64,000 nt of DNA from a virus (lineage: Duplodnaviria > Heunggongvirae > Uroviricota > Caudoviricetes): IMG/VR virus record IMGVR_UViG_3300037418_003103. One strand, written 5' to 3'. Under the pieces are notes generated by a model. That model did no database searches. It was not told where the DNA came from and saw only the letters and a program-made list of their open reading frames with translations. The first letter of the stretch is position 1. Each line of letters starts with the position of its first letter. Positions 5,830-49,101 of this stretch are shown here, one piece after another. The position numbers were made by a program, and so were the translations under genes.

Positions 5830-7947
5830 TTATACTATTTTAACAAATGGCTTAGAGAACTCAGGCCTGATCATTTTCCAAATTTGTTTATCAAGAGCAT
5901 CAGAATAAGAATTAAGCCTGGTAAATAAAAGACTAGTATTCTTGTTTAACTTTGCTGCCTCAGCAAAAGCCTTTCTATTAACAATCTTATAGAAATCCTC
6001 TTCTACCTCAAGCCGAATTATTTCATACTGATGAATGAGTTCATTTGAAGTGTCATGCAACCAGTTAAAAAATTCGTCAGGTACTCTATCCAATAATTCA
6101 TCAAATGGCTTACCCTCTGATAGGTATTCCCAAACGGCTAGATTGGACACCCCTGTAACAATTCGATGCAGTCTGATATACTCATCGAATTTAACCTTAA
6201 CTCTAAATCCATTACTGAACTTAACAACAAACCCTTCTTTATTCTCCTCTTCAAGAGCCTTCAATTCACTTAAGTCATTTACTCCATCATACCTCTTAAC
6301 AATAGGTAAACCTATATCTTCTAATGGAAGATCCAGACCAGTAGCTGTATCTCTAACAGCGATAAGAATCAGATCATCCATTTCACCATATCCACACACG
6401 ATTCTATTTTCAGGATATATGATCTCCACAAGATATGTTTTAGACTTATCCATCTTATATTTTATATCCTTATACTTAGTATGAAGTATTCTATTTGCAT
6501 GCCTGGATTGATCCGAGTTAAAGCTACCCTTAGTTGCTATGTAAATCTCATCATTCAGCCAGTAAAAAATACCAAGCGAATTGTGTACTAATATTCCTTT
6601 TGCAAAATAATTTTTTGTTTCTGTTCCAATATCAAATCCTTTTCTTCCAGACGGAAAATTCCTTTTTGTGCTCTCAATCTTATTAATTGATAAAATTTTC
6701 TTTTCAACTAATTTAAATGATGCTTTACATTCTTTAATTAAATTTTTAAAACCATACGGTTTATCTCTATAAAGGAGTGGTAATTTATACCTCATACATG
6801 GAATTATATATGGCTCAATCGCTTCCCAAAAATTTGTAATTGAATTATCTTTAGACTTGTTTATTCTTATAACCCAACCCTTATGATAGTGAACATTAAA
6901 ATCGATTTGATACATTTCATATAATTTATTACCCAAACGATAACATTCATCTTCCGTAAATGAATTTGTTGCAAATAACGCACGGTCTTCTTGTTTTTCA
7001 CTATGTATAAGAGAACCATCATCCATATACCATTTTGCAACGGTAAAGTCATTAACCCAAGATAAATCTTCAGGTATTATTTTCTTACCTTCTGGATACC
7101 ATAAATCTCTCAATTCTGTTAATTCTGGGTATTCTTTTGTTACGAACCAATGTAATTGGCTACCATAACCAGATACTGATGTTTTTCTTTTAGCTGTATA
7201 ATCTACAAATATTGATTTAAAATAATTTACATATTCCTTATAGTTTTCAGTGTGTGGTTCACTATACTTATGGCCATTAATTCCTTTAACAATACATCCA
7301 TCCCCTAATAAACCTGACTTTATAATATGTAATAAAGGTTCAGGCATTGAATTAGCAAATGTCGATATGCTATCCCCAACTTCACACTCAAATGCAGGTT
7401 TATATTTACCATTAACAAATATATGATGATTATCAGTTACTCTAATAATATTAGGCTTATTAGCACCACCAGATTTTTTTGAAACAGGACAATCTACAGT
7501 AATAGCTAGCCAATTGTTTTTTGTTCCGTTGTCAAAATGTTCTATTACTTTAGACGGTACTAAATTACCCTCTTCATCCATACCTATTAACGTGGGCGTC
7601 AATTTCTTATTGACAATATCGCCTATTAATAATGTTGTACCATCCCAACATTGAATTGGTGTGTCGAACCTAAAGCAACCGTCCATCTTCTCATATACTT
7701 CAAAAGGTAGGTTAGGTATATCCTCAGGTTTGTGTTCAGATATATTAAAGAATTTACTGAAAGGACGAGCAATGATATTCATATCTCCATCCATTATAAG
7801 GCCACGAGTTATGGTTGTAACTTCATCCCATAACTTCATGAACTGAACTTTTTGAGAATAATTATAAATATATAACTCAGCAGATGGATGTTTTTGAACA
7901 TTCACCAGTCTATCTTCAATGTGTCTTAATAGTAATTCTTTATTCAT
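5830..7947 (-). CDS. T4 Rnl1-like RNA ligase interrupted by an intein
   Basis: RGLI, RPFSKFFN, motif I YEKMDG|SLG, ATKGSF, EIIYPENRIV, EGFVV, RVKVK. Confidence 0.92.
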   Translation of the reverse strand: MNKELLLRHIEDRLVNVQKHPSAELYIYNYSQKVQFMKLWDEVTTITRGLIMDGDMNIIARPFSKFFNISEHKPEDIPNLPFEVYEKMDGCFRFDTPIQCWDGTTLLIGDIVNKKLTPTLIGMDEEGNLVPSKVIEHFDNGTKNNWLAITVDCPVSKKSGGANKPNIIRVTDNHHIFVNGKYKPAFECEVGDSISTFANSMPEPLLHIIKSGLLGDGCIVKGINGHKYSEPHTENYKEYVNYFKSIFVDYTAKRKTSVSGYGSQLHWFVTKEYPELTELRDLWYPEGKKIIPEDLSWVNDFTVAKWYMDDGSLIHSEKQEDRALFATNSFTEDECYRLGNKLYEMYQIDFNVHYHKGWVIRINKSKDNSITNFWEAIEPYIIPCMRYKLPLLYRDKPYGFKNLIKECKASFKLVEKKILSINKIESTKRNFPSGRKGFDIGTETKNYFAKGILVHNSLGIFYWLNDEIYIATKGSFNSDQSRHANRILHTKYKDIKYKMDKSKTYLVEIIYPENRIVCGYGEMDDLILIAVRDTATGLDLPLEDIGLPIVKRYDGVNDLSELKALEEENKEGFVVKFSNGFRVKVKFDEYIRLHRIVTGVSNLAVWEYLSEGKPFDELLDRVPDEFFNWLHDTSNELIHQYEIIRLEVEEDFYKIVNRKAFAEAAKLNKNTSLLFTRLNSYSDALDKQIWKMIRPEFSKPFVKIV
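6580..7677 (-). mobile_element. Intein with LAGLIDADG homing endonuclease (366 aa)
   Basis: Starts at Cys91 (CFRFDT), block B VTDNHHIF, motifs GLLGDG and WYMDDG, ends ILVHN followed by Ser. Confidence 0.93.
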
Positions 7948-10327: not shown

Positions 10328-11872
10328 TTATTTTGCTAATCTTTCTCTTATTTCTTGCAGTGAATGATCAACAAGCAGTATTCCGTCTTTAAATACTGTT
10401 TTAAGTGCACCCGTTTTTTCTTCTTCGTTAGAAACCTGATCTTTTAGCTCATAAGTTTTATTATTATTTTCTATCACTTCTTTAACACACAATAGCCCTT
10501 TTGCACTCTTCTTTGTTCCGTCATCTGTTATTGGATCTTTAAATATTTCACGACCAATTGGATTAGATAATCCATGAGAACCTACAGTCCTAACTTCGCC
10601 ATAAGTTGCTTTTATTGCAAAACCAAAAGTGTCTCTGGTATTATATTGATAAGTATAACTTCCAATTCCAAGTACAACATTGGTTGAAGCGAAGCCTTTA
10701 GCTTTTAAACGTTCACAAATTTGTTCAGCTCGGTCAAGGGTGATGCTATCTCCATAAATGGCTCCAATATGCGGGTCCAAAACCTTGTATCCCAGTTCAT
10801 TTACAGTCCCGCCAAATACGTCCCAGAGTAATTCAATCACACCCTTATCTTCAGGTATCATTTTCTTTCTCCAATCAGACATTTGAGTGGAATCGTACAA
10901 ACCAGAGTGTTTTGTCCAATTAACCGCTCCACAGATAATATCAACAGGATCTCCACTGTCAGGACGTATAACCAACTTACCATTACGGCCCATAATTTTA
11001 TCCTTCATTTTGGGTAGAAAGTCTGTACATACAGTCCAAAGGTTCCAAGTATCCGATACTACTGAAAGGATTCCTTCTGGATACAAGTCTAATAACCTTT
11101 CAAACGTTTTTATTTCAGATTCTTGAGTGCCCATACACATTATTGAATGTTCTGTTGCTGGCACTGAGCATCCTACCAACTCTTTAGTTACATCAGCTCC
11201 GTAATATTCTTCAAGAAATTCTATTGCGGGAATGGTATCAGTGCCTTTAAAAGACAACAAATGGCCTGCTCCAGATAAAGCTCCACTTTCATGTGATGAC
11301 ATCCCTCTGAGAGCAAAATCGTGCCCGATAAATTCTACGCCATTGATTGAACCAGTGGTTTCCAACGCATATTTATTAAGCAACATTCTGTAATGGTTAG
11401 CTATAGTAGCTGATGTAGTTGACTGCCACACTGAATAGCTTAAAGATGTTTCAAGAAAATTAACTAACCAATATGCGTGATCAACCGTATTAGTAATAGT
11501 TACCACTGGAACTCTGATTGGTGAAACAGAACCCTCTGGTAAGGCTTTAATTTCCAGTGGTAAATAACCAAGATCATGAAGTTTTTCAATATGTGTAGTA
11601 TCTATAGAATCCTTGCCCAAAGTATTATCCATCATTCGTTTGAACTTTGAAATCACCTCATCTTTAGGCTTATTAAAAAACTGTTCATTCCAGTTTTTAA
11701 TCAAATATTCTTTAATATAATACTGTAAGCCAAAGTTAACAACGTAATTAATACCTGGTATTCTGGATTTTCTAGGCGTTAAGTTACTGTATATTTTAGT
11801 TGTATTTTCTGGGTACATTTTGTAGTGCGACTGTTTATAAAAATCTACTGCTAATAACGGATTTGTATTCAT
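10328..11872 (-). CDS. nadV: NAMPT-family protein (probable NARP1 Namat)
   Basis: DFYKQSH, HDFALRG, GTDT, PATEHS, VVSDT, RPDSGDP, YGDSIT, KKSAKG. Confidence 0.93.
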   Translation of the reverse strand: MNTNPLLAVDFYKQSHYKMYPENTTKIYSNLTPRKSRIPGINYVVNFGLQYYIKEYLIKNWNEQFFNKPKDEVISKFKRMMDNTLGKDSIDTTHIEKLHDLGYLPLEIKALPEGSVSPIRVPVVTITNTVDHAYWLVNFLETSLSYSVWQSTTSATIANHYRMLLNKYALETTGSINGVEFIGHDFALRGMSSHESGALSGAGHLLSFKGTDTIPAIEFLEEYYGADVTKELVGCSVPATEHSIMCMGTQESEIKTFERLLDLYPEGILSVVSDTWNLWTVCTDFLPKMKDKIMGRNGKLVIRPDSGDPVDIICGAVNWTKHSGLYDSTQMSDWRKKMIPEDKGVIELLWDVFGGTVNELGYKVLDPHIGAIYGDSITLDRAEQICERLKAKGFASTNVVLGIGSYTYQYNTRDTFGFAIKATYGEVRTVGSHGLSNPIGREIFKDPITDDGTKKSAKGLLCVKEVIENNNKTYELKDQVSNEEEKTGALKTVFKDGILLVDHSLQEIRERLAK

Positions 11873-11966
11873 ATTTAATCTTTGATTTTATCCCATTTTC
11901 TTTTTAAAACGGGAAGGTTTGTAATATTGTTTTTTATATATTTAAGTGTGTTCTCTCAAAAAAAAA

Positions 11967-12761
11967 TTATACTACTTTAAATTGGTGAACGAAATTGTTT
12001 AAACTTTTCATATGATTACCATCATGATAATCATTGCTTATATCTTTAACTGAGTTGGTGCAAAAAATTCTGGTTATGTTTTCTTTTAATTGATCGAATC
12101 CTTTACTGAAGTATCCATGGGTAACATATAGATATACATCTCTTGCACCCTGTTCTTTTAATTTTTGAGAGAGTACCGTAAAGGTATAACCGCCATCGCA
12201 CAAATCGTCAACGATCAAGCAGTCCTTGTCCTTTACATCCCCGACAAAAACCATATTTATTTCCCCGCTTAGACTCCTATATTTATTTGCTGCAACAACT
12301 GGCAAATCTAACTTACTTCCATAGGTGAATACCTTCTTATAAGCACCAGCATCAGGTGAGACCAGGACTAAATTATCTGATTTAATGTTCTCAACCGCAT
12401 TAGTTACAAAATTAAATGAAGTAAGTTTAAATGAATTATTTATCAGAGCAAGACATACATCAGAATGAGGATCAAGCACAGATACAGTAGTAAAGTGACA
12501 TGAATTAATCACTTCAGCAATCACTTTTAAATCAAATGATTGAGTCTCTATAAAACGTCTATCGCTTCTCTGCCCAAATAAGCATGGAATAAACGCACTT
12601 GTTTCAATATTTTTATACTGTAAAATCTCAGCAATGCTTCTTAGATAGAAGAGATCTTCATAAGAGTTGATTCGTGTGGATACTATCTCAGACGGATCAT
12701 TTGCCGATACAAGCTTAGCAGATATTTGACCGTCAGGATACCTGACTTTTTCGAAATTCAT
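11967..12761 (-). CDS. prs: Ribose-phosphate pyrophosphokinase family (probable NARP1 Adps)
   Basis: RYPDGQ, QRSDRRF, DPHS, SPDAGA, IVDDLCDGGYTF, LYVTHG. Confidence 0.92.
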   Translation of the reverse strand: MNFEKVRYPDGQISAKLVSANDPSEIVSTRINSYEDLFYLRSIAEILQYKNIETSAFIPCLFGQRSDRRFIETQSFDLKVIAEVINSCHFTTVSVLDPHSDVCLALINNSFKLTSFNFVTNAVENIKSDNLVLVSPDAGAYKKVFTYGSKLDLPVVAANKYRSLSGEINMVFVGDVKDKDCLIVDDLCDGGYTFTVLSQKLKEQGARDVYLYVTHGYFSKGFDQLKENITRIFCTNSVKDISNDYHDGNHMKSLNNFVHQFKVV

Positions 12762-19108: not shown

Positions 19109-19984
19109 TTAATAAAATCTTTGTTGAGTAGGAGTCATAGCTCTTTTCATATTCAAAAGAGCCTTATTTTTAATGAGTCTTACCCCCTCAGTAGTGATGT
19201 CAAGCTTAGTAGCAATTTGTTTAAGAGATAAGGTGTCTCGTCCATTCAATCCGAAGCAGTATGATAAAACTTCTTTTTGCTTTGGCTTAAGTTTTTCAAT
19301 GAAAGGATGGAGTTCAATTTTTAGATCGTTACAGCAAGCGATGCTGTCAGCGTTGTAATCATTATTTGAATTTGACAGGACGTCTCCATACGTTGAGCTA
19401 CCATCAACATCATGAAAAACCTCCTTATCAATTGAGTCAAACTTAAAATTAGAAATTTCAATTCGATGTTTTAGATCTGATTCATTAACATCTTCATCTA
19501 CGTATTCCTCCATATCTTGTAATTCAGGCCTACGCTCCAACACCTGTTCTAGTCTTTCAACTATATGTTCCATTTTAGATATTCCATAAACCAAATTGCT
19601 TGGAAGTCTCACAAGTCTTGTTTTACCCGCTAAATAATCTGTTATACATTTTCTTATAAGCCATACAGCATAAGAAATGAATTTAAAGCCACAATCAGGT
19701 TTGTAATTTTTAACTGCTAGGGTAAGGCCTATATTTCCTTCTTCTATTAGGTCTTCTAAGGTGGCGCTTTTACTAACATACTGTTTTGCCACGCTAATAA
19801 CAAATCTTAAATTTGAAACGATTAGCTTTTCTATGGCTTGTTTATCTCCTTCCACCGCTTTAAGCGCGCAAGAATTTTCTTGCTCTGGGGTTAGTATTGG
19901 AATTTTGCTAACTTCTTTTAAATAGAGTTTAATACTATTAACTTGTACAGAAGTTATTTTTTGGGCTATTGATAATTTACGCAT
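19109..19984 (-). CDS. Sigma-70 family RNA polymerase sigma factor (RpoD/RpoS-like)
   Basis: LYLKEV, SNLRFVISVAKQY, DLIEEGNIGL, KFISYAVW, VRLP, region-4 HTH ITTEGVRLI. Confidence 0.93.
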   Translation of the reverse strand: MRKLSIAQKITSVQVNSIKLYLKEVSKIPILTPEQENSCALKAVEGDKQAIEKLIVSNLRFVISVAKQYVSKSATLEDLIEEGNIGLTLAVKNYKPDCGFKFISYAVWLIRKCITDYLAGKTRLVRLPSNLVYGISKMEHIVERLEQVLERRPELQDMEEYVDEDVNESDLKHRIEISNFKFDSIDKEVFHDVDGSSTYGDVLSNSNNDYNADSIACCNDLKIELHPFIEKLKPKQKEVLSYCFGLNGRDTLSLKQIATKLDITTEGVRLIKNKALLNMKRAMTPTQQRFY

Positions 19985-20705: not shown

Positions 20706-21914
20706 TTAGATAATTATTTTCTTCGTAAATCCGTTGTCATAAATAAGAATATAAATACCATGAGCAAGATGGGAATTTCTCTTGAACTGCTCCAAATCGG
20801 TAACAGAAATAACGCTTACTAACTTTCCTGACATATCATAAACAGATATGCTTCTAGCTGGAGTGGCGTCAAATTTAACCAAGACTATTTTTCCATAAGA
20901 TATAATTCCGCGACTATCAATTTTTTTAATTCTATAATAATTTATTGGGAGGGGTGAATTATCGAAGTATTTAAATTCTCCGCTGGTCGTCATGTTCATT
21001 ACACCGATTGTATTGAAAGTAAGCCCATCAGATGAACGAGATATTTCAAACCTATTGTAGGTTGACATGGGATCTTCCGCCCATGTGAGCTGTACTCTCT
21101 TACCTATCTTTATTGCAGATAATTCACGAACGGTACCTACTGATAGGACAATAACATCTCCTGGCTTCACCGAATAATAATCTGAGTTGTCGCTACCTAC
21201 TCTGAATTCATCTATTAGAAGCCTTCTGGATGGAATACCTGTCTCATCTGTTTGCCAATTCAGTCTCCAGTCAATCTTATCTACGCCCACGCGCAAGTAA
21301 TTAGGTGTTGTGTTATTTGGACCATTGACAAACAAACGAAGTGTATCATTGATCCAAATTTTAATGTAACCACTTGAATCGTTTGACCACTTTATATTCA
21401 TTATTAAATCATTCCAAGATTTTAGTTTAACAGGTCCTATGTTCCAGTGAGTTTCAAGATCTTGTCCGTTGGATTGAACGCTTCCAACTATTGCAGTCAT
21501 GTAGTTATACTGTCCCTGGTAGTTAATAAGAAGAGGAGGTAAATGCTCTGTATTAATTTTATCAAACTCCATTAGGGTACTATACGAGTCAAATTCATTA
21601 GTAGGATATTCATCAAGGTAAAAGCTCATCCCGTACCAGGAAGTAAAGTTGATTAAATTGTTACTCGGAAGAATAAATTGGCTTCTCATTACGCTACTCT
21701 TTAATGAGTCGCTTGAATTGACCAAGAAACTTGCTGATTGGTTGCCGTATTTAACGGTGCTAGACACTTCAATAGCTGTTGGATTGGATTTAACCGTATC
21801 CATTCCCTGGAATGGTGATAAGGACTCAAAGTTATTCTCGTACTCAATACCATATCGTTGAGCAGCTAAGAGCAAAGGGAATAACAAAAATGTTATAGTA
21901 ATTACCCGCTTCAT
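20706..21914 (-). CDS. Secreted polysaccharide-lyase-like protein with Ig-like domain and T9SS-type C-terminal domain
   Basis: Signal peptide; WYGMSFY/WNDL..IKWS..SGYIKIWIN/DEFRVG jelly-roll; FEISRSSDG..YYRIKKID; VYDMSGKLV..GIYIL..TKKIII. Confidence 0.75.
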   Translation of the reverse strand: MKRVITITFLLFPLLLAAQRYGIEYENNFESLSPFQGMDTVKSNPTAIEVSSTVKYGNQSASFLVNSSDSLKSSVMRSQFILPSNNLINFTSWYGMSFYLDEYPTNEFDSYSTLMEFDKINTEHLPPLLINYQGQYNYMTAIVGSVQSNGQDLETHWNIGPVKLKSWNDLIMNIKWSNDSSGYIKIWINDTLRLFVNGPNNTTPNYLRVGVDKIDWRLNWQTDETGIPSRRLLIDEFRVGSDNSDYYSVKPGDVIVLSVGTVRELSAIKIGKRVQLTWAEDPMSTYNRFEISRSSDGLTFNTIGVMNMTTSGEFKYFDNSPLPINYYRIKKIDSRGIISYGKIVLVKFDATPARSISVYDMSGKLVSVISVTDLEQFKRNSHLAHGIYILIYDNGFTKKIII

Positions 21915-23304: not shown

Positions 23305-23643
23305 TTATTTATTTTGGTTCCTACTTTCCCGTCTTTCTTTATCTTTTTCATCCACATCCAACAACTCAACTGTTTGACCCTTTAGATGATGCCAGCAATC
23401 ATTTAAGTATTGTATGTTCCCATCTTTTATAAACGAGTGACAAATATGCTCAGGGTTAAAATTCTGTAGTAAGGAGGGAGTGATGGTAGGATTATTCAAG
23501 TCCATATTAAAGTGATGATGTCCGCCATTTTCTACTAACGCAAACGCATGCTCCCATCCGCACCCCTCACACCAGTATAGGTATTGATCAACCCTTACTA
23601 TACCGTCATCGTGTTTTAAAAAATAGTGTCTAATCTTTGCCAT
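23305..23643 (-). CDS. DUF6527-like Cys/His protein
   Basis: CEGCGWEH, PTITPSLL, CHSFIKDG, YLNDCWH. Confidence 0.7.
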   Translation of the reverse strand: MAKIRHYFLKHDDGIVRVDQYLYWCEGCGWEHAFALVENGGHHHFNMDLNNPTITPSLLQNFNPEHICHSFIKDGNIQYLNDCWHHLKGQTVELLDVDEKDKERRESRNQNK

Positions 23644-23992
23644 GTTCAAAAATTTCCTTCTAGCCACAAATAACATTCGTTATCCACGTCATGTCTTGTA
23701 AATTTAGTTGGTGTGAAGCTAAATATTTTATTATCCAATTGATCATGTAATTCAATTCCTGAATTTGGATTAATCAAATCAAATGTTGTTATTTGTGTTT
23801 TTATTTCTATGTCCTTAGAACGTTCTAAAATTCTATAGCATTCTAACTCTAATAGATTGGCTGTAAATAAATCTGTTTTAAAGCTAAATTCTACCCCAGC
23901 CTCATTTTCAATGAAAGAATTATCTAATACCTCGAATTCTATTCCAAATTTGTTAAATTTTAATGTCCTCATCGATTTAAAATTTATTTTAA

Positions 23993-25588
23993 TTACATAG
24001 ACATGATGTCTATGTCTGTGTTTAGTGTAGTATACTCAACACCATCCTTGGTGGTTACAAAGAGAACGTGCTGCGTCTTGCCAAGAAGATTAATTAAAAC
24101 GTGACCATGGAACCATGCAGATGCTCCTCTATTATAAGAAAGTCTTAATTTCGTGCTAGTTCCTACGCTAGAAAATCCATCAATACGGCAGGGTTGATGT
24201 GTATGACCTGTCACCATCTTGGTAAGTTTTTTAAATTGATTTGCTGATCCTCTTGATCCAGAAGCACCAACATGACCATGACTTCCGCATTCAATATTTC
24301 TTACTTTATAACTATCATTAATACCAAGACATTTCATATTAGGATAACGCTCATTAATAATATATGGAACTACACCATTTGGTGCTTTACCCTCAAGTAT
24401 TGCTGTTGAATACTTCATATATGGAAGAGCATTTTTCATGGTTGACATCTTCCGCCAATCTGTTATTCGTAAAAACTTATCCAAGTGTTCATCATGATTA
24501 CTCTTAACAATAACCACATTATATTTCTCTACCTGTTCAAGCCATTTAAGCATCTCCTTTACTTCATTTTCCAGAGAATTAGAACCATCCATTTCCTTTT
24601 CATATAAGAGGAAAGGATCATCTATATCGTGATGACTAATTGACCTGCTATCAATAATGTCGTGTAAAAATAATTTGCTAGGATGCAGTTTTTTACACAA
24701 GTCATTTAGAGTTACATCCACTACATCCTTATCTACGACTGCTACATGAATATCACCCATGATAAGCGCTTCAACCTTATCCACCCTTGTAACTTTTTCA
24801 TTGCTCACCTTATAAAATAGATCAATAAATTCACCCTTGTTATTGGCAGTTATTTGCCTGGCAAAGAAAACTTCTTCATCTTTTATTTCTACTATACAGG
24901 CCCCGTAAGTATGATGGAATTCGCCTATCTTACCAGCCTTAGAATTTGTATAATTAGGTTTTGTACATGCACCTGTTGTAAACATCAACTTGGGCTTTGA
25001 CCCTTCCAGGACAGGATGTGATCGTAAGTGTACTCTAGGATGGCCGATCACGCAACTATGCTCGCCAGTCATTGTCTCTAAGGATGTTAATGGCATGCTA
25101 GCCGTTGGCTGCATTTTAACATCACTAAGGATAGCGATGCTGTTGTTTAAATTATGCCTATTTAGTGTTAAATAAGGAATAACTTCTTTATCCCACCAGT
25201 CATCTTTTTGAGCTTTTTCAGACCACATGCTTGTAGGGTTTTTGTATCTGTAGGGTATGACAAGAATTTGAGCTCCTATATGATCTGCATATACTTTTAA
25301 ATTATCGAAAAAATCCTTATTTACTGGTGTTGCATTTTGTGCTGAGGTTATCAAGAATCGCTTCTTATTTTTGTCATGTTCTTTTTTCTTTGCCTTAACC
25401 AGGACGTCAGGCTCGATGTCCATCTTTTCTTTAAATCCTAATTTTACAGCCCATTTTCTTACAGTTCTTTCAGATTTATTAAAGTAATGCATTAACTCCT
25501 GCATTCTATCATCCCAGGGTAATTCTTTATTTGTGTAAGTTTTTTTGGCAAATTCTATTTGCTCTGCAGTTAGTTCTTTGAACTTCAT
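23993..25588 (-). CDS. HTH plus calcineurin-like metallophosphoesterase
   Basis: SERTVRKW HTH; GDIH, LHD, SNHDE, SHGH, GHTH. Confidence 0.8.
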   Translation of the reverse strand: MKFKELTAEQIEFAKKTYTNKELPWDDRMQELMHYFNKSERTVRKWAVKLGFKEKMDIEPDVLVKAKKKEHDKNKKRFLITSAQNATPVNKDFFDNLKVYADHIGAQILVIPYRYKNPTSMWSEKAQKDDWWDKEVIPYLTLNRHNLNNSIAILSDVKMQPTASMPLTSLETMTGEHSCVIGHPRVHLRSHPVLEGSKPKLMFTTGACTKPNYTNSKAGKIGEFHHTYGACIVEIKDEEVFFARQITANNKGEFIDLFYKVSNEKVTRVDKVEALIMGDIHVAVVDKDVVDVTLNDLCKKLHPSKLFLHDIIDSRSISHHDIDDPFLLYEKEMDGSNSLENEVKEMLKWLEQVEKYNVVIVKSNHDEHLDKFLRITDWRKMSTMKNALPYMKYSTAILEGKAPNGVVPYIINERYPNMKCLGINDSYKVRNIECGSHGHVGASGSRGSANQFKKLTKMVTGHTHQPCRIDGFSSVGTSTKLRLSYNRGASAWFHGHVLINLLGKTQHVLFVTTKDGVEYTTLNTDIDIMSM

Positions 25589-27476: not shown

Positions 27477-28175
27477 TTATAACGTATTTTCTTTTATTTG
27501 TTTTATTATTTCTGGTACTCCAATACTGGCCTTTTCTCTTAAATAAATAACTTTTTTACCCAGAATGCTTAGTTCTTCAGAAGGGTTAGGATCAATATAA
27601 ATTATCTTTGTAGTGTCAGGTGCGGAACAGAGTAAAGGTGTAATGTAACCGATGCTAAGGCTGGTACCAACAATTATTAAGTAATCAGCTTCTAAAATAC
27701 ACTCATTTGCCTTCAAAACATCATAAGGGTATTCACCAAACCAAACTACACACGGTCTTAGTTGAGAGCCATCCTTTGGATGCTTATCGGATGTGGTAAT
27801 ATCTGACGTCCATGGGATGCTTAAATTAGGATTATTTGAGCTAGTTGCTCTTAATAATTGGCCATGAAGATGAATTACATCTTTGCTCCCCGCTCTTTCA
27901 TGTAGATCATCCACGTTCTGTGTAATAACCTTAACGTCAAATAAACCCTCCAAAGCAGATATTGCTTCGTGCGCAGCATTTGGATTAACGTAAGATAACT
28001 CCTTCCTTCTGCCATTATAAAAATCCAATACTTTTTCACGGTTCTTTCTCCAACCATTAACGGTGGCTACCTCATCAATACTAAAGTTCTCCCACATACC
28101 ACCTTTATCTCTAAAGGTATCTATACCACTCTCCTGGGAAACACCAGCACCAGTAAAAAATACTATTTTTTTCAT
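27477..28175 (-). CDS. cobB: Sirtuin (CobB-like NAD-dependent deacylase)
   Basis: FTGAGVSQESGIDTFR, TQNVDDLHERAG, HLHG, LRPCVVWFGE, VGTS. Confidence 0.93.
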   Translation of the reverse strand: MKKIVFFTGAGVSQESGIDTFRDKGGMWENFSIDEVATVNGWRKNREKVLDFYNGRRKELSYVNPNAAHEAISALEGLFDVKVITQNVDDLHERAGSKDVIHLHGQLLRATSSNNPNLSIPWTSDITTSDKHPKDGSQLRPCVVWFGEYPYDVLKANECILEADYLIIVGTSLSIGYITPLLCSAPDTTKIIYIDPNPSEELSILGKKVIYLREKASIGVPEIIKQIKENTL

Positions 28176-44288: not shown

Positions 44289-44525
44289 TTTTTGGTTATC
44301 ATCTTCTTTATACTTAGTGTTTAAATAATGTAGATAGCCAATTTCTTCAGAAGTTAATTCACCAATAAAAAAACTATCTTTAAATTTTTCAGTATTAAAT
44401 ACGTGATATCTCACATTTTTATTCGAAAAGTATTCAACTTCAACAAGTTTGCCTAATTCAATTAATTCGTCTATAAAATATTCATACTGTTCTAAAGCTG
44501 TCATCATAATTTTAATTTTTATTTG

Positions 44526-44596
44526 AATTACATGAGAGATTCGAACTCCCGTGGTGTGGGTTGCAACCACACGCCTAACCACTCGGCCAATGTAAT
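44526..44596 (-). tRNA. tRNA-Cys(GCA)
   Basis: Cloverleaf; loop TTGCAAC; U73. Confidence 0.9.
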
Positions 44597-44597
44597 A

Positions 44598-44807
44598 TTA
44601 AGCTTCTTTTATCATTCCAAGGATTTCTCTTGGAGATACAAGAGTACACTTCTCTTGTATCTCCTTTATTCTTCTCTTGGGAATATCGTAGTGATTCTTG
44701 TGAAACCAGCATTTTTTAATCCCAAGCAACTCACCCATTAAATGCAGGTTCTCTATTGAATACGGTATGCATATCAGATGTCTCTGTTTATCACAGAAGT
44801 ACTTCAT
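44598..44807 (-). CDS. DUF4031-like protein
   Basis: NLH.M...LGIKKCWFH..HYDIP. Confidence 0.65.
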   Translation of the reverse strand: MKYFCDKQRHLICIPYSIENLHLMGELLGIKKCWFHKNHYDIPKRRIKEIQEKCTLVSPREILGMIKEA

Positions 44808-45013
44808 TTCCATTGCTTCTTTCTGTTGTACTTCCATGTTCTATACTCCCCGTATTTCCATTTTAGAATCTCTTTATTTTTTCTTCTACCTCTTGAACGA
44901 TGGTATATAATACCTTCATCCCAGTAGGGTTCAGACATCCTATCATTGGTTACAATCTTGTATTCTTTCCTACAAGTTGTCTTTTGGCTCACTGAGCCTT
45001 TAAATGGTTTCAT
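44804..45013 (-). CDS. Small basic protein ending WKYNRKKQWK
   Basis: Shares its C-terminal motif with 45433-45621. Confidence 0.65.
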   Translation of the reverse strand: MKPFKGSVSQKTTCRKEYKIVTNDRMSEPYWDEGIIYHRSRGRRKNKEILKWKYGEYRTWKYNRKKQWK

Positions 45014-45054
45014 CAATTAGATTTTTATATCTAATGTTCTGTTACTCTTTTCAT
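45011..45054 (-). promoter_or_regulatory. uORF MKRVTEH* plus hairpin next to the start codon
   Basis: Stop TAG lies in hairpin ATTAGAT/ATCTAAT; ATG 17 nt after the stop. Confidence 0.55.
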
Positions 45055-45100
45055 ATTATTTTTTTTTAACCAACAGTATTTAGTTGGCCAATTTTTAATT

Positions 45101-45451
45101 TTATACTATTCCAAATATTAGTAATTTTGCGGGCATTGCAGCAAAATAATCTGCATCATCCATTTTTGATACTGGCACTTCAAATCTTACTATTTCTGCA
45201 TTTATTTCTCCACAATTGATTAAAGTTTGATAATAGGCTACCCCTTTTCTTATCATTGTCAAAGTAGCTTGTGGGTTTTGCTTATAAAGAATTTTCTTTA
45301 TTTCATTTTTTTTGTCAATCTCTTTTTGAATCTTCCAATCATCGAAACCTGGAGGTGGTGGTACAAATCCGCGCATGTTATTTTTAATTTGTTTTTTACT
45401 TTTTTCAGACTGTTCCTCTGTTAAATTAGGAACTAATTCATTTGCTTCCAT
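45101..45451 (-). CDS. Hypothetical protein
   Basis: KKILYKQNP.A, FEVPVSKM.DA. Confidence 0.6.
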   Translation of the reverse strand: MEANELVPNLTEEQSEKSKKQIKNNMRGFVPPPPGFDDWKIQKEIDKKNEIKKILYKQNPQATLTMIRKGVAYYQTLINCGEINAEIVRFEVPVSKMDDADYFAAMPAKLLIFGIV

Positions 45452-45621
45452 TGTGTTTTTCTATTTAATTTCCAATTGATTTTGTGCCTATTATATCTGC
45501 GATATCTATTACAGCCTCTATGAGGTCTACATCTATCACAACCTAATCTATTTCTCAACCAAATTATTCTAAAGGTTCTTGAATCTGTTACTTTTTCTAT
45601 TTCTTTTGTTTTGTATGACAT
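45433..45621 (-). CDS. Small basic Cys/His protein ending WKLNRKTQWKQMN
   Basis: CDRCRPHRGCN; Arg/Lys-rich. Confidence 0.65.
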   Translation of the reverse strand: MSYKTKEIEKVTDSRTFRIIWLRNRLGCDRCRPHRGCNRYRRYNRHKINWKLNRKTQWKQMN

Positions 45622-45665
45622 TCTGAATTGTTTTTAATTCAGAAGAAGTCGTATTGTTTTTTCAT
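45619..45665 (-). promoter_or_regulatory. uORF MKKQYDFF* plus start-occluding hairpin
   Basis: Stop TGA lies in hairpin TTCTGAATT/AATTCAGAA; ATG 17 nt after the stop. Confidence 0.6.
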
Positions 45666-45684
45666 TTAATTTATATTTTACTTG

Positions 45685-45755
45685 TAGCACCACTAAGATT
45701 CGAACTTAGTCGTCGAAAATCAAAATTTCGCATGCTGCCGTTACATCATGGTGCA
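45685..45755 (-). tRNA. tRNA-Gln(TTG)
   Basis: CGAAA-TTTTGAT-TTTCG anticodon arm; GTTCGAATC T-arm. Confidence 0.88.
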
Positions 45756-46120
45756 ATTTTACTCCAAATTCTATTTTCCAGGTCCTTATAAAAGGGTTCA
45801 GGGATCTTTATTCCTCTTGACTCAAAATCCTCTACAATTTCCTGCTTCCTAAAAGTACCTTCAACTACACCATCACTCCAAAGGTTGACATGCAACCCCC
45901 AACTCTTCTTAGCTGTTATTACAGCCCTGGTTATGTTCGGATGGCGGGTAATAACCTCAAATATATCATTACTCTTAAATTCTCCATTATCAAATCTCTT
46001 AAAGGCTTCCTTTCCTGAGAATGAACCAGTTCCTTGTTTGAATCTGTAGTCCAGATTCAGATCACATCCACAAAAGATAAGTAACCCACTTCTATATGAC
46101 TTCAGAAAGAATGAGAACAT
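45746..46120 (-). CDS. Hypothetical protein (possibly frameshifted 5' end)
   Basis: Frame stays open about 40 codons upstream without a start codon. Confidence 0.5.
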   Translation of the reverse strand: MFSFFLKSYRSGLLIFCGCDLNLDYRFKQGTGSFSGKEAFKRFDNGEFKSNDIFEVITRHPNITRAVITAKKSWGLHVNLWSDGVVEGTFRKQEIVEDFESRGIKIPEPFYKDLENRIWSKIAP

Positions 46121-46253
46121 TTCATTAAAGTTTTCTGAATACTTTCTTATCTTTCTATCTTTTCTTGAACCAATCAGTTTTTTTCTTTCTTCTCTATCCT
46201 GATTGGTTACATTGCGTCCAGCCGTTTCATAATGCTCATAATTTTAATTTGTC

Positions 46254-46514
46254 TTAGGGTATTATTCCAAGTGATTTTAATTCTTTTTCAATACCTCTTC
46301 CCTCCTTATTGGAGGCGGTACAAAAGCACTGTACCGCCTCAGCTACTGCGACCTCTACATCATCGTCATAAGCCGCAATTGTATTCAGTTTGAACAATGG
46401 TATGTCAACGTCCAAGTAACCCATTCTTTGAGTTGTAATTACTGGCGTTAGGACACTATAGCTCCTTCCAGGAAGATCCATTGTTATATTCATTACTTTA
46501 TTATCATTCTCCAT
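46254..46514 (-). CDS. Hypothetical protein
   Basis: 86-aa ORF inside the tRNA array. Confidence 0.5.
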   Translation of the reverse strand: MENDNKVMNITMDLPGRSYSVLTPVITTQRMGYLDVDIPLFKLNTIAAYDDDVEVAVAEAVQCFCTASNKEGRGIEKELKSLGIIP

Positions 46515-46602
46515 ATTAATAATGTTTCATAATAAATATTAGCAAACGGTGGCAGAGGATAGGCGTGCACTAACGCCTCGTTTTACGTCAAACTTTGCCT
46601 TG

Positions 46603-46676
46603 CTCAGGCTTGTGGATTCGAACCACAGTCTCCACCGCATATATAGGTGGCATCCTAACCGCTAGACCAAACCTGA
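46603..46676 (-). tRNA. tRNA of undetermined identity (Asp/Glu-type body, 9-nt anticodon loop)
   Basis: All stems intact; CCACC-TATATATGC-GGTGG. Confidence 0.7.
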
Positions 46677-46781
46677 ATTTAAGATCTGACTAAAGCTTAG
46701 ACGCACACGTGGCTATGGTGGCTCTCCTTCGGCTGATTCAGCAAATTTTTGCTGACACCGTTTATTAATATTTAAAGAACT

Positions 46782-46858
46782 TGGCGGTTTGGACGGGACT
46801 CGAACCCGTGACCTCCGCCGTGACAGGGCGGCATTCTAACCAACTGAACTACCAAACC
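46782..46858 (-). tRNA. tRNA-Asp(GTC) with encoded CCA
   Basis: Canonical cloverleaf; loop CTGTCAC. Confidence 0.97.
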
Positions 46859-46903
46859 TTTTAATCGTTTTTAAAACACGCAGAACGATTCAAAACTGAC
46901 CTG

Positions 46904-46976
46904 AGTTCCCTGCTGGACTTGAACCAGCGACCAATCCCTATTACAGGACTGCTCTAACCAACTGAGCTAAGGGAGC
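46904..46976 (-). tRNA. tRNA of undetermined identity (irregular anticodon loop)
   Basis: Good D- and T-arms; AGTCC-TGTAATAG-GGATT. Confidence 0.65.
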
Positions 46977-46982
46977 GTTTTG

Positions 46983-47055
46983 TAGCACGAACGGGAATCG
47001 AACCCGTGACTTCTCCGTGAAAGGGAGACGTCTTAAACCCCTTGACCATCGCGCC
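46983..47055 (-). tRNA. tRNA-Glu(TTC)
   Basis: TCTCC-CTTTCAC-GGAGA. Confidence 0.95.
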
Positions 47056-47067
47056 ATTAATATTTAG

Positions 47068-47141
47068 TAGTCCATGAAGGACTCGAACCCTCAACCTCCT
47101 GATCCGTTATCAGGTGCTCTATCCAGTTGAGCTAATGAACC
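47068..47141 (-). tRNA. tRNA-Arg(ACG), A at position 33
   Basis: CCTGA-TAACGGA-TCAGG. Confidence 0.88.
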
Positions 47142-47152
47142 GTTTTTTTTTG

Positions 47153-47224
47153 AGCAGAATATTGGATTCGAACCACACATCCTGATTACAAATCAGGCGC
47201 TCTACCAGCTAAGCTATATTCTGC
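47153..47224 (-). tRNA. tRNA-Thr(TGT)
   Basis: CCTGA-TTTGTAA-TCAGG; short variable/T region. Confidence 0.85.
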
Positions 47225-47231
47225 ATTTGTC

Positions 47232-48039
47232 GGAGACGTGGGGCTCGAAACATACTTTTCTTTAATTATTTGGTATTTATTAATATGAAGCCAAAATACA
47301 CTAATAAAGAATTTGAAGAAGCAACTTCAACCACAGAATTACCTTGCGAATGTTACCAATGTTCAAATACATTTCTTAAAATTAAAAAACATATAACTTT
47401 TGAACTTAAACACAATGTCGGTGAGTGTAAATTTTGCTCACAACAGTGTTTATCTAATTTTAAAAATAAGAAAATTAGTGTTAATTGTTCAAATTGTTCA
47501 AAGACCTTTAAAAAAAACAAACATAGAATGAAATTATCATTAAATCATTTCTGTTCACGCTCATGCTCCGCAACCTATAATAACATTCATAAAACTTACG
47601 GCACTAGAAGGTCAAAATTGGAATGTTGGTTAGAGCAACAACTCACCGCATTATACCCTACCATCCATTTTGATTTCAACAAGAAAACTATTATCAAGTC
47701 TGAGCTAGATATTTACATACCATCATTATCATTAGCATTTGAATTAAACGGTATCTTTCATTACGAACCCATATTCGGCATTAAAAAACTTAACCAAACA
47801 CAGAACAACGATATTTCCAAAAGTAAAGCTTGCTTTGACGCAAAAGTTGACCTTTGTATTATAGATGTTTCATCTCAAAATTATTTCAAAGAACCTTCCA
47901 GTATCAAATTTTTAGATATCATCCGAAAAATTATTGATGACCGCTTGTTAACATCTTAGCCGCTATAAAAATAACGTTACCAGCAAACACCTCTTGGCGG
48001 TGGGTTAACTTAGTTTGCCTAGGAGACGTGGGGCTCGAA
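47232..48039. mobile_element. Endonuclease cassette flanked by an 18-bp direct repeat of a tRNA 3' end
   Basis: ggagacgtggggctcgaa at 47232-47249 and 48022-48039. Confidence 0.75.
47285..47959 (+). CDS. Zinc-finger plus PD-(D/E)XK (Vsr/DUF559-like) homing-type endonuclease
   Basis: CxxC/FCSxxC repeats; ELDIYIP..AFELNG.FH; antisense to the array. Confidence 0.8.
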   Translation: MKPKYTNKEFEEATSTTELPCECYQCSNTFLKIKKHITFELKHNVGECKFCSQQCLSNFKNKKISVNCSNCSKTFKKNKHRMKLSLNHFCSRSCSATYNNIHKTYGTRRSKLECWLEQQLTALYPTIHFDFNKKTIIKSELDIYIPSLSLAFELNGIFHYEPIFGIKKLNQTQNNDISKSKACFDAKVDLCIIDVSSQNYFKEPSSIKFLDIIRKIIDDRLLTS

Positions 48040-48094
48040 CCCACCTGACCTGATACCCTTCCGACACGGTATAAGCGTGAGGGGATAGACTCCA
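48020..48094 (-). tRNA. Atypical D-armless tRNA-Ile(TAT)-like RNA
   Basis: CACG-CTTATAC-CGTG arm, GTGGG-TTCGAGC-CCCAC T-arm, no D-stem. Confidence 0.6.
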
Positions 48095-48105
48095 ATTTTT
48101 AATAG

Positions 48106-48178
48106 AGCGAAGTGTCAGATTCGAACTGCATCCCCTGGTTGGAAGCCAAGTACTTTAAGCCATTAAGCTACACCTCGC
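48106..48178 (-). tRNA. tRNA-Gly(TCC)
   Basis: Loop CTTCCAA; GCG/CGC acceptor with U73. Confidence 0.9.
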
Positions 48179-48184
48179 AATTTG

Positions 48185-48258
48185 TGGTCCCTGCTGGATT
48201 CGAACCAGCGGCCCTTGGTTTGTAATACCAATGCTCTAACCAACTGAGCTAAAGGACT
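48185..48258 (-). tRNA. tRNA-Val(TAC)
   Basis: TTGGT-ATTACAA-ACCAA. Confidence 0.9.
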
Positions 48259-48259
48259 A

Positions 48260-48298
48260 TGGAGCCGAGAGGCAGCATCCCTGCCTGTTCAACTCGGC
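48260..48298 (-). ncRNA. 39-nt CCA-terminated tRNA minihelix-like RNA
   Basis: GCCGAG-TTGAAC-AGGCAG-GGATG-CTGCCT-CTCGGC-T-CCA. Confidence 0.55.
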
Positions 48299-48534
48299 AT
48301 ATACTCTTTATAATTTTATTCAAAATAATCTGTCGCAATAACCAACTCATCTAATTTCTTTTTACTAACCTTCTTTGCTATTATCTTAAGATCATACTCT
48401 TCCCACCTAATTTGTGCTTTACGAATTGCTTCCTCTTCTGATTCGGCAAGAGTATAACAATACATTGGTGTTTTTGCTCCTTTCATTATAGGTATAAATA
48501 CAAAATATAATTCATTCATTTGTTAATTTTTTTG

Positions 48535-48608
48535 TGGAGTAGGCGAGCATCAAACTCGCTACCTCCTGCATGCAAAGCAGGTGCTCTATCCAACTGAGCT
48601 TCTACCCC
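48535..48608 (-). tRNA. tRNA-Ala(TGC)
   Basis: G3:U70 pair; loop TTTGCAT. Confidence 0.92.
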
Positions 48609-48626
48609 ATTTAATTCTTTTCTTTG

Positions 48627-48699
48627 TAGCCTTGAATGGATTCGAACCATTATCCTCGGCTTAGAAGGTCGATGCTCTGGTCCATTGAGCTACAAAGCT
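48627..48699 (-). tRNA. tRNA-Arg(TCT)
   Basis: Loop CTTCTAA. Confidence 0.92.
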
Positions 48700-49026
48700 A
48701 TTGTTGCACGAAAATAGTGTATTTAGCTAAATATACTTTATTTAAAGTATATTTTATAATTTTTAATTGGGTTGTCGGTTAATTTGTTAGTACTTTCCAA
48801 ATACCATCCAATATCATACGTTTCGCTATCTATATTACTAATTTCTATTTTCATACCATCCTTTTTCAATTTTTCAATAGTTTCTGCTGAAACAAAACAC
48901 TCAAATAATGTTACATAGTTTAACTTATTTTCTGGGTTATAGGTGGTATTATGTATTAATGTTATAATATCTTCATACGTTTTTTCATGAAACTTTCCCA
49001 ATTCTGTCATAATTTTTAATTTTTTA

Positions 49027-49101
49027 GCGCGCAGTCAAGGAATCGAACCTTGTCCATGCTAGGTTTTGGAGACCTGCCGCATACCATTATGCTACCACGC
49101 A
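49027..49101 (-). tRNA. tRNA-Trp(CCA)
   Basis: Loop CTCCAAA; T-arm CAAGG-TTCGATT-CCTTG. Confidence 0.85.

Follow-up and report, generated by a model that had tools for sequence, protein, structure and literature searches.

The gene described here lies on the minus strand of a 64,000-nucleotide stretch of DNA (the window) from the uncultured virus record IMGVR_UViG_3300037418_003103 (Caudoviricetes) and encodes a protein, referred to below as the cargo protein, with the sorting signal of the Bacteroidota type IX secretion system (T9SS). The initial annotation of the locus, which was made from the DNA letters alone, had placed an open reading frame (ORF) here, and this corresponds exactly to a single intact ORF of 402 amino acids (Table 1). 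In the AlphaFold2 model of the protein, built with 64 homologs, a signal helix is followed by three β domains, with a mean predicted local distance difference test score (pLDDT) of 88.8; a second model, of residues 255-402, has a pLDDT of 88.9. The structure prediction that had been proposed as a check on the annotation has thus been run, and the jelly roll, the fibronectin type III (FN3) domain and the region of the C-terminal sorting domain (CTD) are all modelled. The gene is a new representative of a published phenomenon, the T9SS type A cargo of phages, which was first reported in 2020. What it adds is modest, namely a passenger type, the PF14099 jelly roll, to join the few phage T9SS cargoes published so far, together with a shortened CTD common to a small clade, two very large phage carriers and a PF14099 subfamily without the catalytic set of the lyases.

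The first of the β domains belongs to the family PF14099 (Polysacc_lyase), which spans both heparin lyase I of polysaccharide lyase family 13 (PL13) and PL20, and which is matched over residues 34-211 with 70.2 bits (gathering cutoff 29.9). An all-against-representatives structural search gave 2zzj_A, the PL20 endo-glucuronan lyase of Trichoderma reesei (TrGL), as the best match (Z 26.4, root-mean-square deviation (rmsd) 2.4 over 220 of 238 residues), and a direct sequence match in the PDB was likewise obtained to 2ZZJ alone (E 1.5e-5). The next structural matches, Cip1, GH131, PL7 alginate lyases (Z 16-17) and heparinase I (9grw_A, Z 16.9), have Z-scores of 17.6 or less. A jelly roll resembling the polysaccharide lyases, as originally suggested, is therefore upheld by both the family score and the fold. 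Foldseek also returned many receptor-binding domains of clostridial neurotoxins (the Hc region of botulinum and tetanus toxins), but with an rmsd of ~20 Å this likeness was put down to a generic lectin-type jelly roll and taken to say nothing about function; GH131 shows the same resemblance to the neurotoxin domain (PMC12149522).

The catalytic site of TrGL is made up of Arg51, His53, Glu55, Gln91, Tyr200 and Asp206 (PMC7601620). When the site is mapped with an alignment of 64 sequences and with two profile alignments to 2ZZJ, made independently of each other, these residues fall on V75, R77, Q79, E116, D212 and L218 of the cargo protein, so that none of the six is retained and the position of the catalytic tyrosine of the PL20 lyase is taken by an aspartate. 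The observation in the initial annotation that the usual lyase positions look altered (RSQ, MEFD, YLRVGVD) was therefore correct. At Gln91 the two profile alignments are out of register with each other by four residues, and the 64-sequence alignment was followed there because two flanking acidic columns are common to both groups. Ordinary PF14099 relatives retain R-[ST]-E, Q-W-H and Y-x-K-x-G-x-Y-K, and with these the glutamate, the glutamine and the tyrosine. The 11-member clade that includes the cargo protein has uniformly R-S-Q, either glutamate or glutamine at the Gln91 position, and L-R-x-G-x-D-K-W-D-W-R; its conserved cleft residues are R77, Q79, E116, R208, D212 and K213. Since the altered cleft is common to the whole clade, including a chromosomal protein from Terrimonas, it is an old trait of the subfamily and not decay of the phage copy; judged by these alignments, the clade is a distinct PF14099 subfamily rather than a decayed lyase. 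In jelly-roll lyases the tyrosine acts as base and acid (PMC11920209) and, with an aspartate in its place, canonical β-elimination by the cargo jelly roll is very unlikely. The cargo protein is thus probably not a canonical lyase, and the conserved charged residues of the cleft point to a working site, either for binding or for a different chemistry.

Four members of the cargo clade, WP_237871776.1 (P0007), P0006, P0012 and P0013, are annotated as 'heparin lyase I family', although each has aspartate for the catalytic tyrosine and lacks the histidine. This NCBI name denotes family membership only, and for these four it probably overstates function. An uncharacterised PF14099 subfamily that carries this name, with a cleft seemingly unable to support the known lyase mechanism, is a caution for the automated annotation of carbohydrate-active enzymes (CAZymes) and auxiliary metabolic genes (AMGs).

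The second β domain contains the Ig-like FEIxRSxDG...YYRIK module that had been read from the sequence, here in the form FEISRSSDG...NYYRIK, and it folds as FN3 (pLDDT 88.9). VIA Z-scores of 10-11.6 were obtained to many FN3 domains (for example 4u49_A, rmsd 2.0 over 81 residues) over residues 3-97 of the model, the best match being the FN3 domain of the pectate lyase Pel3. A profile labelled 'A1' matches the FN3 domain of gp130 (E 3e-5), and a hidden Markov model (HMM) of the module, from the building of which the query was left out, scores 91 bits on the cargo protein; the Pfam fn3 HMM gives no significant score on it. Those relatives of the module that carry names are proteins from metagenome-assembled genomes of Bacteroidota.

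At the N-terminus, MKR is followed by a hydrophobic run and AA/QR (the slash marks the predicted cut), a signal of the signal peptidase I type according to our own hydropathy heuristic, not SignalP. Cleavage is predicted between A18 and Q19 and would expose a glutamine, as in the Bacteroidetes Q-rule. This rule, by which glutamine follows the signal-peptide cleavage site, is specific to Bacteroidetes (PMC5837995) and has already been noted in proteins of Porphyromonas phages (PMC10367356). Q19-R20 is kept throughout the aligned clade, and the Sec signal peptide of the initial annotation is thus borne out both by reading the sequence and by the heuristic. In a hydropathy screen of the 64-kb window the cargo ORF was the sole positive, no other ORF having a Sec signal.

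The protein ends in a short CTD of type A, as had been claimed for it. Over residues 345-402 of 402, TIGR04183, the NCBIfam model for the type A T9SS domain, gives 28.1 bits where 23 is the cutoff, with model positions 12-71 of 72 covered, and both the GxY of motif D (G386-I-Y388) and the KKIII of motif E (with K399) are present. A CTD HMM made from 30 homologs, the query being excluded, recognises the cargo tail with E 1.5e-11 and detects no other T9SS-tagged ORF in the 64-kb window. The short form is shared by a six-member clade in which G363, L365, G386, Y388, Y392, G395 and K399 are invariant, and the profile of this clade matches the Flavobacterium johnsoniae CTD 8glj_D (E 0.0017) over chain residues 18-68 of 75. 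Homologs on two metagenome contigs (L020 and L021, described below) and the protein P0003 likewise exceed the TIGR04183 cutoff with the short form. Type A CTDs are ~100 residues long and support surface attachment as well as release (PMC12618676). In cryo-EM work the near-invariant C-terminal lysine of the CTD is described as functionally important (PMC10994853), and according to a review the last 13 CTD residues are required, while the last 22 of one CTD sufficed for the export of green fluorescent protein (PMC10202324). The same review also gives a pattern, a loose one, for cleavage by PorU; D349-A350, just before the CTD, agrees with it, which is weak evidence. From this conservation we conclude that the tail is most plausibly a real and selected type A CTD, shortened at its N-terminus, and the short form would presumably suffice for export.

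In the tree of jelly-roll domains, the 11-member clade has a support of 100/100 and a stem length of 1.1. The cargo protein sits on a long branch (1.38) and is grouped with Terrimonas-type proteins (98/92). The phylogeny against host homologs that had been suggested thus places a chromosomal protein, that of Terrimonas ginsenosidimutans (WP_237871776.1), within the cargo clade, and this is also the closest homolog that carries a name. A scan of GTDB genomes brought up no gene from the clade of the phage protein; all its matches were distant, canonical PF14099 genes with 20-32% identity. Scans of IMG/VR with the cargo protein and with the clade alignment gave no relative. A metagenome scan found a second carrier, the contig JACCDX011479450.1 (L020; 327,907 bp), with a full-length homolog that is 34% identical and is grouped in the tree with the set having FN3 plus the short CTD (99/94). 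The window's NAMPT and ClpP-like protease also have homologs on this contig (51% and 60% identical, respectively), which flank the cargo homolog at a distance of ~5 kb, and PHROG virion-protein matches are found nearby. The region L020:1-21221 therefore shares NAMPT, the ClpP-like protease and the cargo gene with the window; gene order differs, as does the GC content (0.40 vs ~0.33). A further cargo homolog is found on the 4-kb contig L021. The pattern of the tree may reflect repeated acquisition by phages, or domain shuffling, or else a misleading long branch. As a separate observation, and as a lead only, a protein-language-model search of the ESM Atlas returned a cluster of 85 proteins of ~236 amino acids with PF14099, mostly labelled viral (Uroviricota), and stand-alone PF14099 domains may be more frequent in phages than one would judge from PHROGs or GenBank phages.

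The cargo gene is phage-borne. Nearly all ORFs of at least 120 amino acids in the window are on the minus strand, and phage genes on the same strand as the cargo gene are found within 1-2 kb on both its flanks and across the whole 64 kb. Its GC content of 0.366 is within one standard deviation of that of the window genes (0.340 ± 0.031), and in codon-usage distance it is 8th of 20. Four contigs, of which the longest is 345,454 bp, carry the identical protein.

The A1-like protein encoded upstream is closest to those of phages of Maribacter, Flavobacterium and Cellulophaga (43-44% identity), and these relatives fit a Flavobacteriia-type host. In T5, A1 is a pre-early gene, and the region around the cargo gene may be an early region; a scan for promoters and terminators and for the motif TATTTAT revealed no clear transcription unit or timing. 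Other genes in the window encode polynucleotide kinase, PRPP synthetase, Sir2, a ParB-like protein, NAMPT, an RNA ligase and a second RNA ligase, as well as an endolysin, an HNH endonuclease, a DNA methyltransferase, a deoxynucleoside monophosphate (dNMP) kinase and a prohead-protease/ClpP-like protein. A 705-aa RNA-ligase-like ORF (5830-7947, minus strand) matches a LAGLIDADG homing endonuclease at residues 207-390, between its N- and C-terminal RNA ligase matches, and this segment resembles an intein or an inserted domain. A 123-aa protein encoded at 23305-23676 on the minus strand has a DUF6527 domain (35.7 bits vs a cutoff of 23.6). Among the tRNA genes, ARAGORN assigned a two-base 'anticodon' to the one at 46903-46976, and another, a tRNA-Tyr, has the anticodon ATA.

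Table 1. Positions of the cargo gene, its domains and other features of the window.
Feature	Position	Strand	Description
Cargo gene	20706..21914	-	402 codons and TAA stop at 20706-20708; from ORF list and translation
Predicted signal peptide, residues 1-18	21861..21914	-	MKR, hydrophobic core and AA/QR; hydropathy heuristic
β-jelly-roll domain, residues 20-254	21153..21857	-	PF14099 (Polysacc_lyase) homolog; PL20-like fold
FN3-like domain, residues 262-347	20874..21131	-	FEISRSSDG...NYYRIK module; model and VIA
Type A T9SS C-terminal sorting domain, residues 345-402	20709..20882	-	TIGR04183
Phage sigma-70-family factor	19109-19984	-	0.7 kb downstream of the cargo gene
T5 A1-like DNA-transfer protein	23993-25588	-	2 kb upstream of the cargo gene
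NAMPT (514 aa), PRPP-synthetase-like (264 aa) and Sir2-like (232 aa) proteins	10328-12761 and 27477-28175	-	NAD-related set
13 tRNA genes	44525-49100	-	One block; ARAGORN

Taking together the observed domain identities, the fold, the altered cleft conserved in the clade, the phage context and the second phage carrier, we infer that this gene of a giant phage probably supplies a passenger to the T9SS of the host, which would be exported to the benefit of the phage and would bind an acidic polysaccharide, or cleave it by a non-canonical chemistry, at the infected cell or in its surroundings. The tentative proposal of the initial annotation, export of a glycan-binding or glycan-cleaving protein by the T9SS of the host, is thus the reading best supported. 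The pre-protein would be exported by the Sec system and cut by signal peptidase I after A18, exposing Q19, which the glutaminyl cyclase of the host would probably convert to pyroglutamate. In the periplasm the folded cargo would be recognised via its C-terminal type A sorting domain, and it would then pass through the SprA/Sov translocon with PorV, to be either fixed to the surface or released. With the FN3 domain as a spacer, the jelly roll would engage the acidic polysaccharide, and the result would be an altered surface or matrix met by this phage and by others. Candidate purposes are receptor masking or superinfection exclusion, the clearing of capsule or matrix for the progeny, and nutrient release, any of which may apply. 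A more specific proposal, to which we give only a small chance, is that the clade with aspartate for tyrosine consists of lectin-like, non-catalytic 'pseudo-lyases' that giant Bacteroidota phages repeatedly captured from their hosts and that, mounted by the T9SS on the infected cell, bind the cell's own acidic capsule or lipopolysaccharide glycan, by which the phage receptor would be hidden or cross-linked. If this were true, they would constitute a device for superinfection exclusion or progeny protection delivered by the T9SS. A virion-associated depolymerase was also considered and was rejected, since the cleavable Sec signal and the T9SS tag lead out of the cytoplasm, where virions are assembled.

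A number of findings weigh against export through the T9SS and a glycan-directed role, and several of them concern the CTD. The profile PF18962 (Por_Secre_tail) scores 21.4 bits against a gathering cutoff of 27 and is covered only at model positions 21-75, so that of the three profiles by which the annotation was to be checked PF14099 (70.2) and TIGR04183 (28.1) pass and PF18962 falls short. The score below threshold is explained by the missing first strand; the PNP motif is absent, and the last strand of the FN3 domain passes directly into the CTD. By itself, the 58-residue tail matched no solved CTD in the PDB. Residues 344-401 were modelled with about five strands and one short helix, the reference fold for type A being a seven-stranded Ig-like β-sandwich, and FN3 domains filled both fold-search lists. 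The low PF18962 score, the missing strand and a length of 53-58 residues, compared with ~100 for type A (PMC12618676), are what might be seen if the shortened CTD were defunct as a T9SS signal, the protein then being periplasmic or the gene a decaying passenger of host origin without a role. This seems improbable to us, given that the short form recurs with its glycine, tyrosine and lysine residues invariant across six divergent proteins from two phage contexts, that the ORF is intact and phage-like in composition, and that motifs D and E, the critical C-terminal ones (PMC10202324), are retained. As for the jelly roll, the missing catalytic tyrosine speaks against lyase activity and is no proof of a binding role, PL36 lyases employing lysine instead of tyrosine (as cited in PMC11920209), and no ligand is on record for the cargo clade. 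Furthermore, no immediate neighbours common to the window, L020 and L021 were found, so that the context offers no clue to function; with its neighbours not conserved, the gene would seem to travel as a single unit.

The same cleft could belong to an enzyme that is secreted in active form and degrades polysaccharides, as a lyase or hydrolase of non-canonical mechanism, and that would feed the infected cell from glycans of the environment during a long jumbo-phage infection, a role proposed for other phage CAZymes. Membership of PF14099, the fit of the clade-conserved R77, Q79, E116, R208, D212 and K213 to a working site, the NAD-salvage genes in the same window and the T9SS-tagged glucanase and GH39 genes of the 'Cryophage' (PMC7468147) would all suit such a metabolic role. 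It is nevertheless doubtful, as not one of the six site residues of TrGL is kept, the catalytic tyrosine is an aspartate and no member of the clade has a known activity, and the long branch of the cargo protein suggests fast evolution, which is commoner in genes for surface interaction than in those for metabolic enzymes. Much less probable is that the tag serves mainly to occupy or jam the host translocon, an idea raised in the initial annotation, with the passenger incidental. The sorting-domain signature is genuine, as a decoy of this kind would have it, but conservation within the protein is highest in the jelly roll (mean identity in the clade 55% over 235 residues vs 39% for the CTD), which would be unexpected for an incidental passenger and makes jamming unlikely, and there is no hint of stalling in the sequence. 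Finally, the closest named homolog is bacterial, the protein has no family in PHROGs, and no match to GenBank phages came up either by megablast with the segment 19-24 kb or by tblastn with the cargo protein, as might be the case if host DNA had been misassembled onto phage DNA or the gene were part of a bacterial island. With same-strand phage genes on both sides, composition and codon use typical of the window, the identical protein on four contigs and a homolog inside a second large phage contig, the probability of this is negligible; the claim that the gene is phage-encoded stands, and the chimeric assembly with host DNA that would have undone it is not what the sequences indicate.

Found in no phylum other than Bacteroidota, the T9SS shapes the surface of these bacteria as well as their motility and use of polysaccharides. 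A glycan-directed protein loaded onto it by a phage would have a bearing on phage-host recognition, on superinfection and on carbon turnover. Together, the T9SS tag and the Q-rule signal peptide are also an independent indication that this uncultured phage of ~345 kb has its host among the Bacteroidota.

Compared with systems already described, the cargo jelly roll has the same fold as TrGL (2ZZJ), but identity is only 17-18%, and TrGL is a fungal single-domain enzyme with neither FN3 nor CTD. The Terrimonas protein WP_237871776.1 is of the same clade and shares RSQ and G-x-D-K-x-D-W-R, a Sec signal followed by glutamine and a T9SS type A CTD; it differs from the cargo protein in its chromosomal location, its full-length CTD (PF18962, 34 bits) and its lack of FN3, and identity across the jelly roll is 33-35%. 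With the F. johnsoniae CTDs seen on the translocon (8GLJ and 8GLK; Lauber et al, 2024, PMC10994853) the cargo CTD has in common the GxY and the near-invariant C-terminal lysine, while the first ~17 residues of the 8glj_D CTD, which form the PNP strand, have no counterpart in it. T9SS sorting domains also occur in the BACON proteins of crAss-like phages (PMC6949934). The most similar case is that of the 'Cryophage', whose T9SS type A cargo consists of an endoglucanase, a GH39 protein and a PA14 protein (Bellas et al, 2020, Nat Commun, PMC7468147). Here the passenger is instead a jelly roll of the PF14099/PL20 type whose cleft is non-canonical, joined to FN3 and to a CTD without its first strand, and it is carried by a phage of ~345 kb with a homolog in a second phage contig of ~328 kb. 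In both cases an uncultured Bacteroidota phage encodes fast-evolving, carbohydrate-directed proteins that end in a type A CTD and presumably hijack the T9SS of the host.

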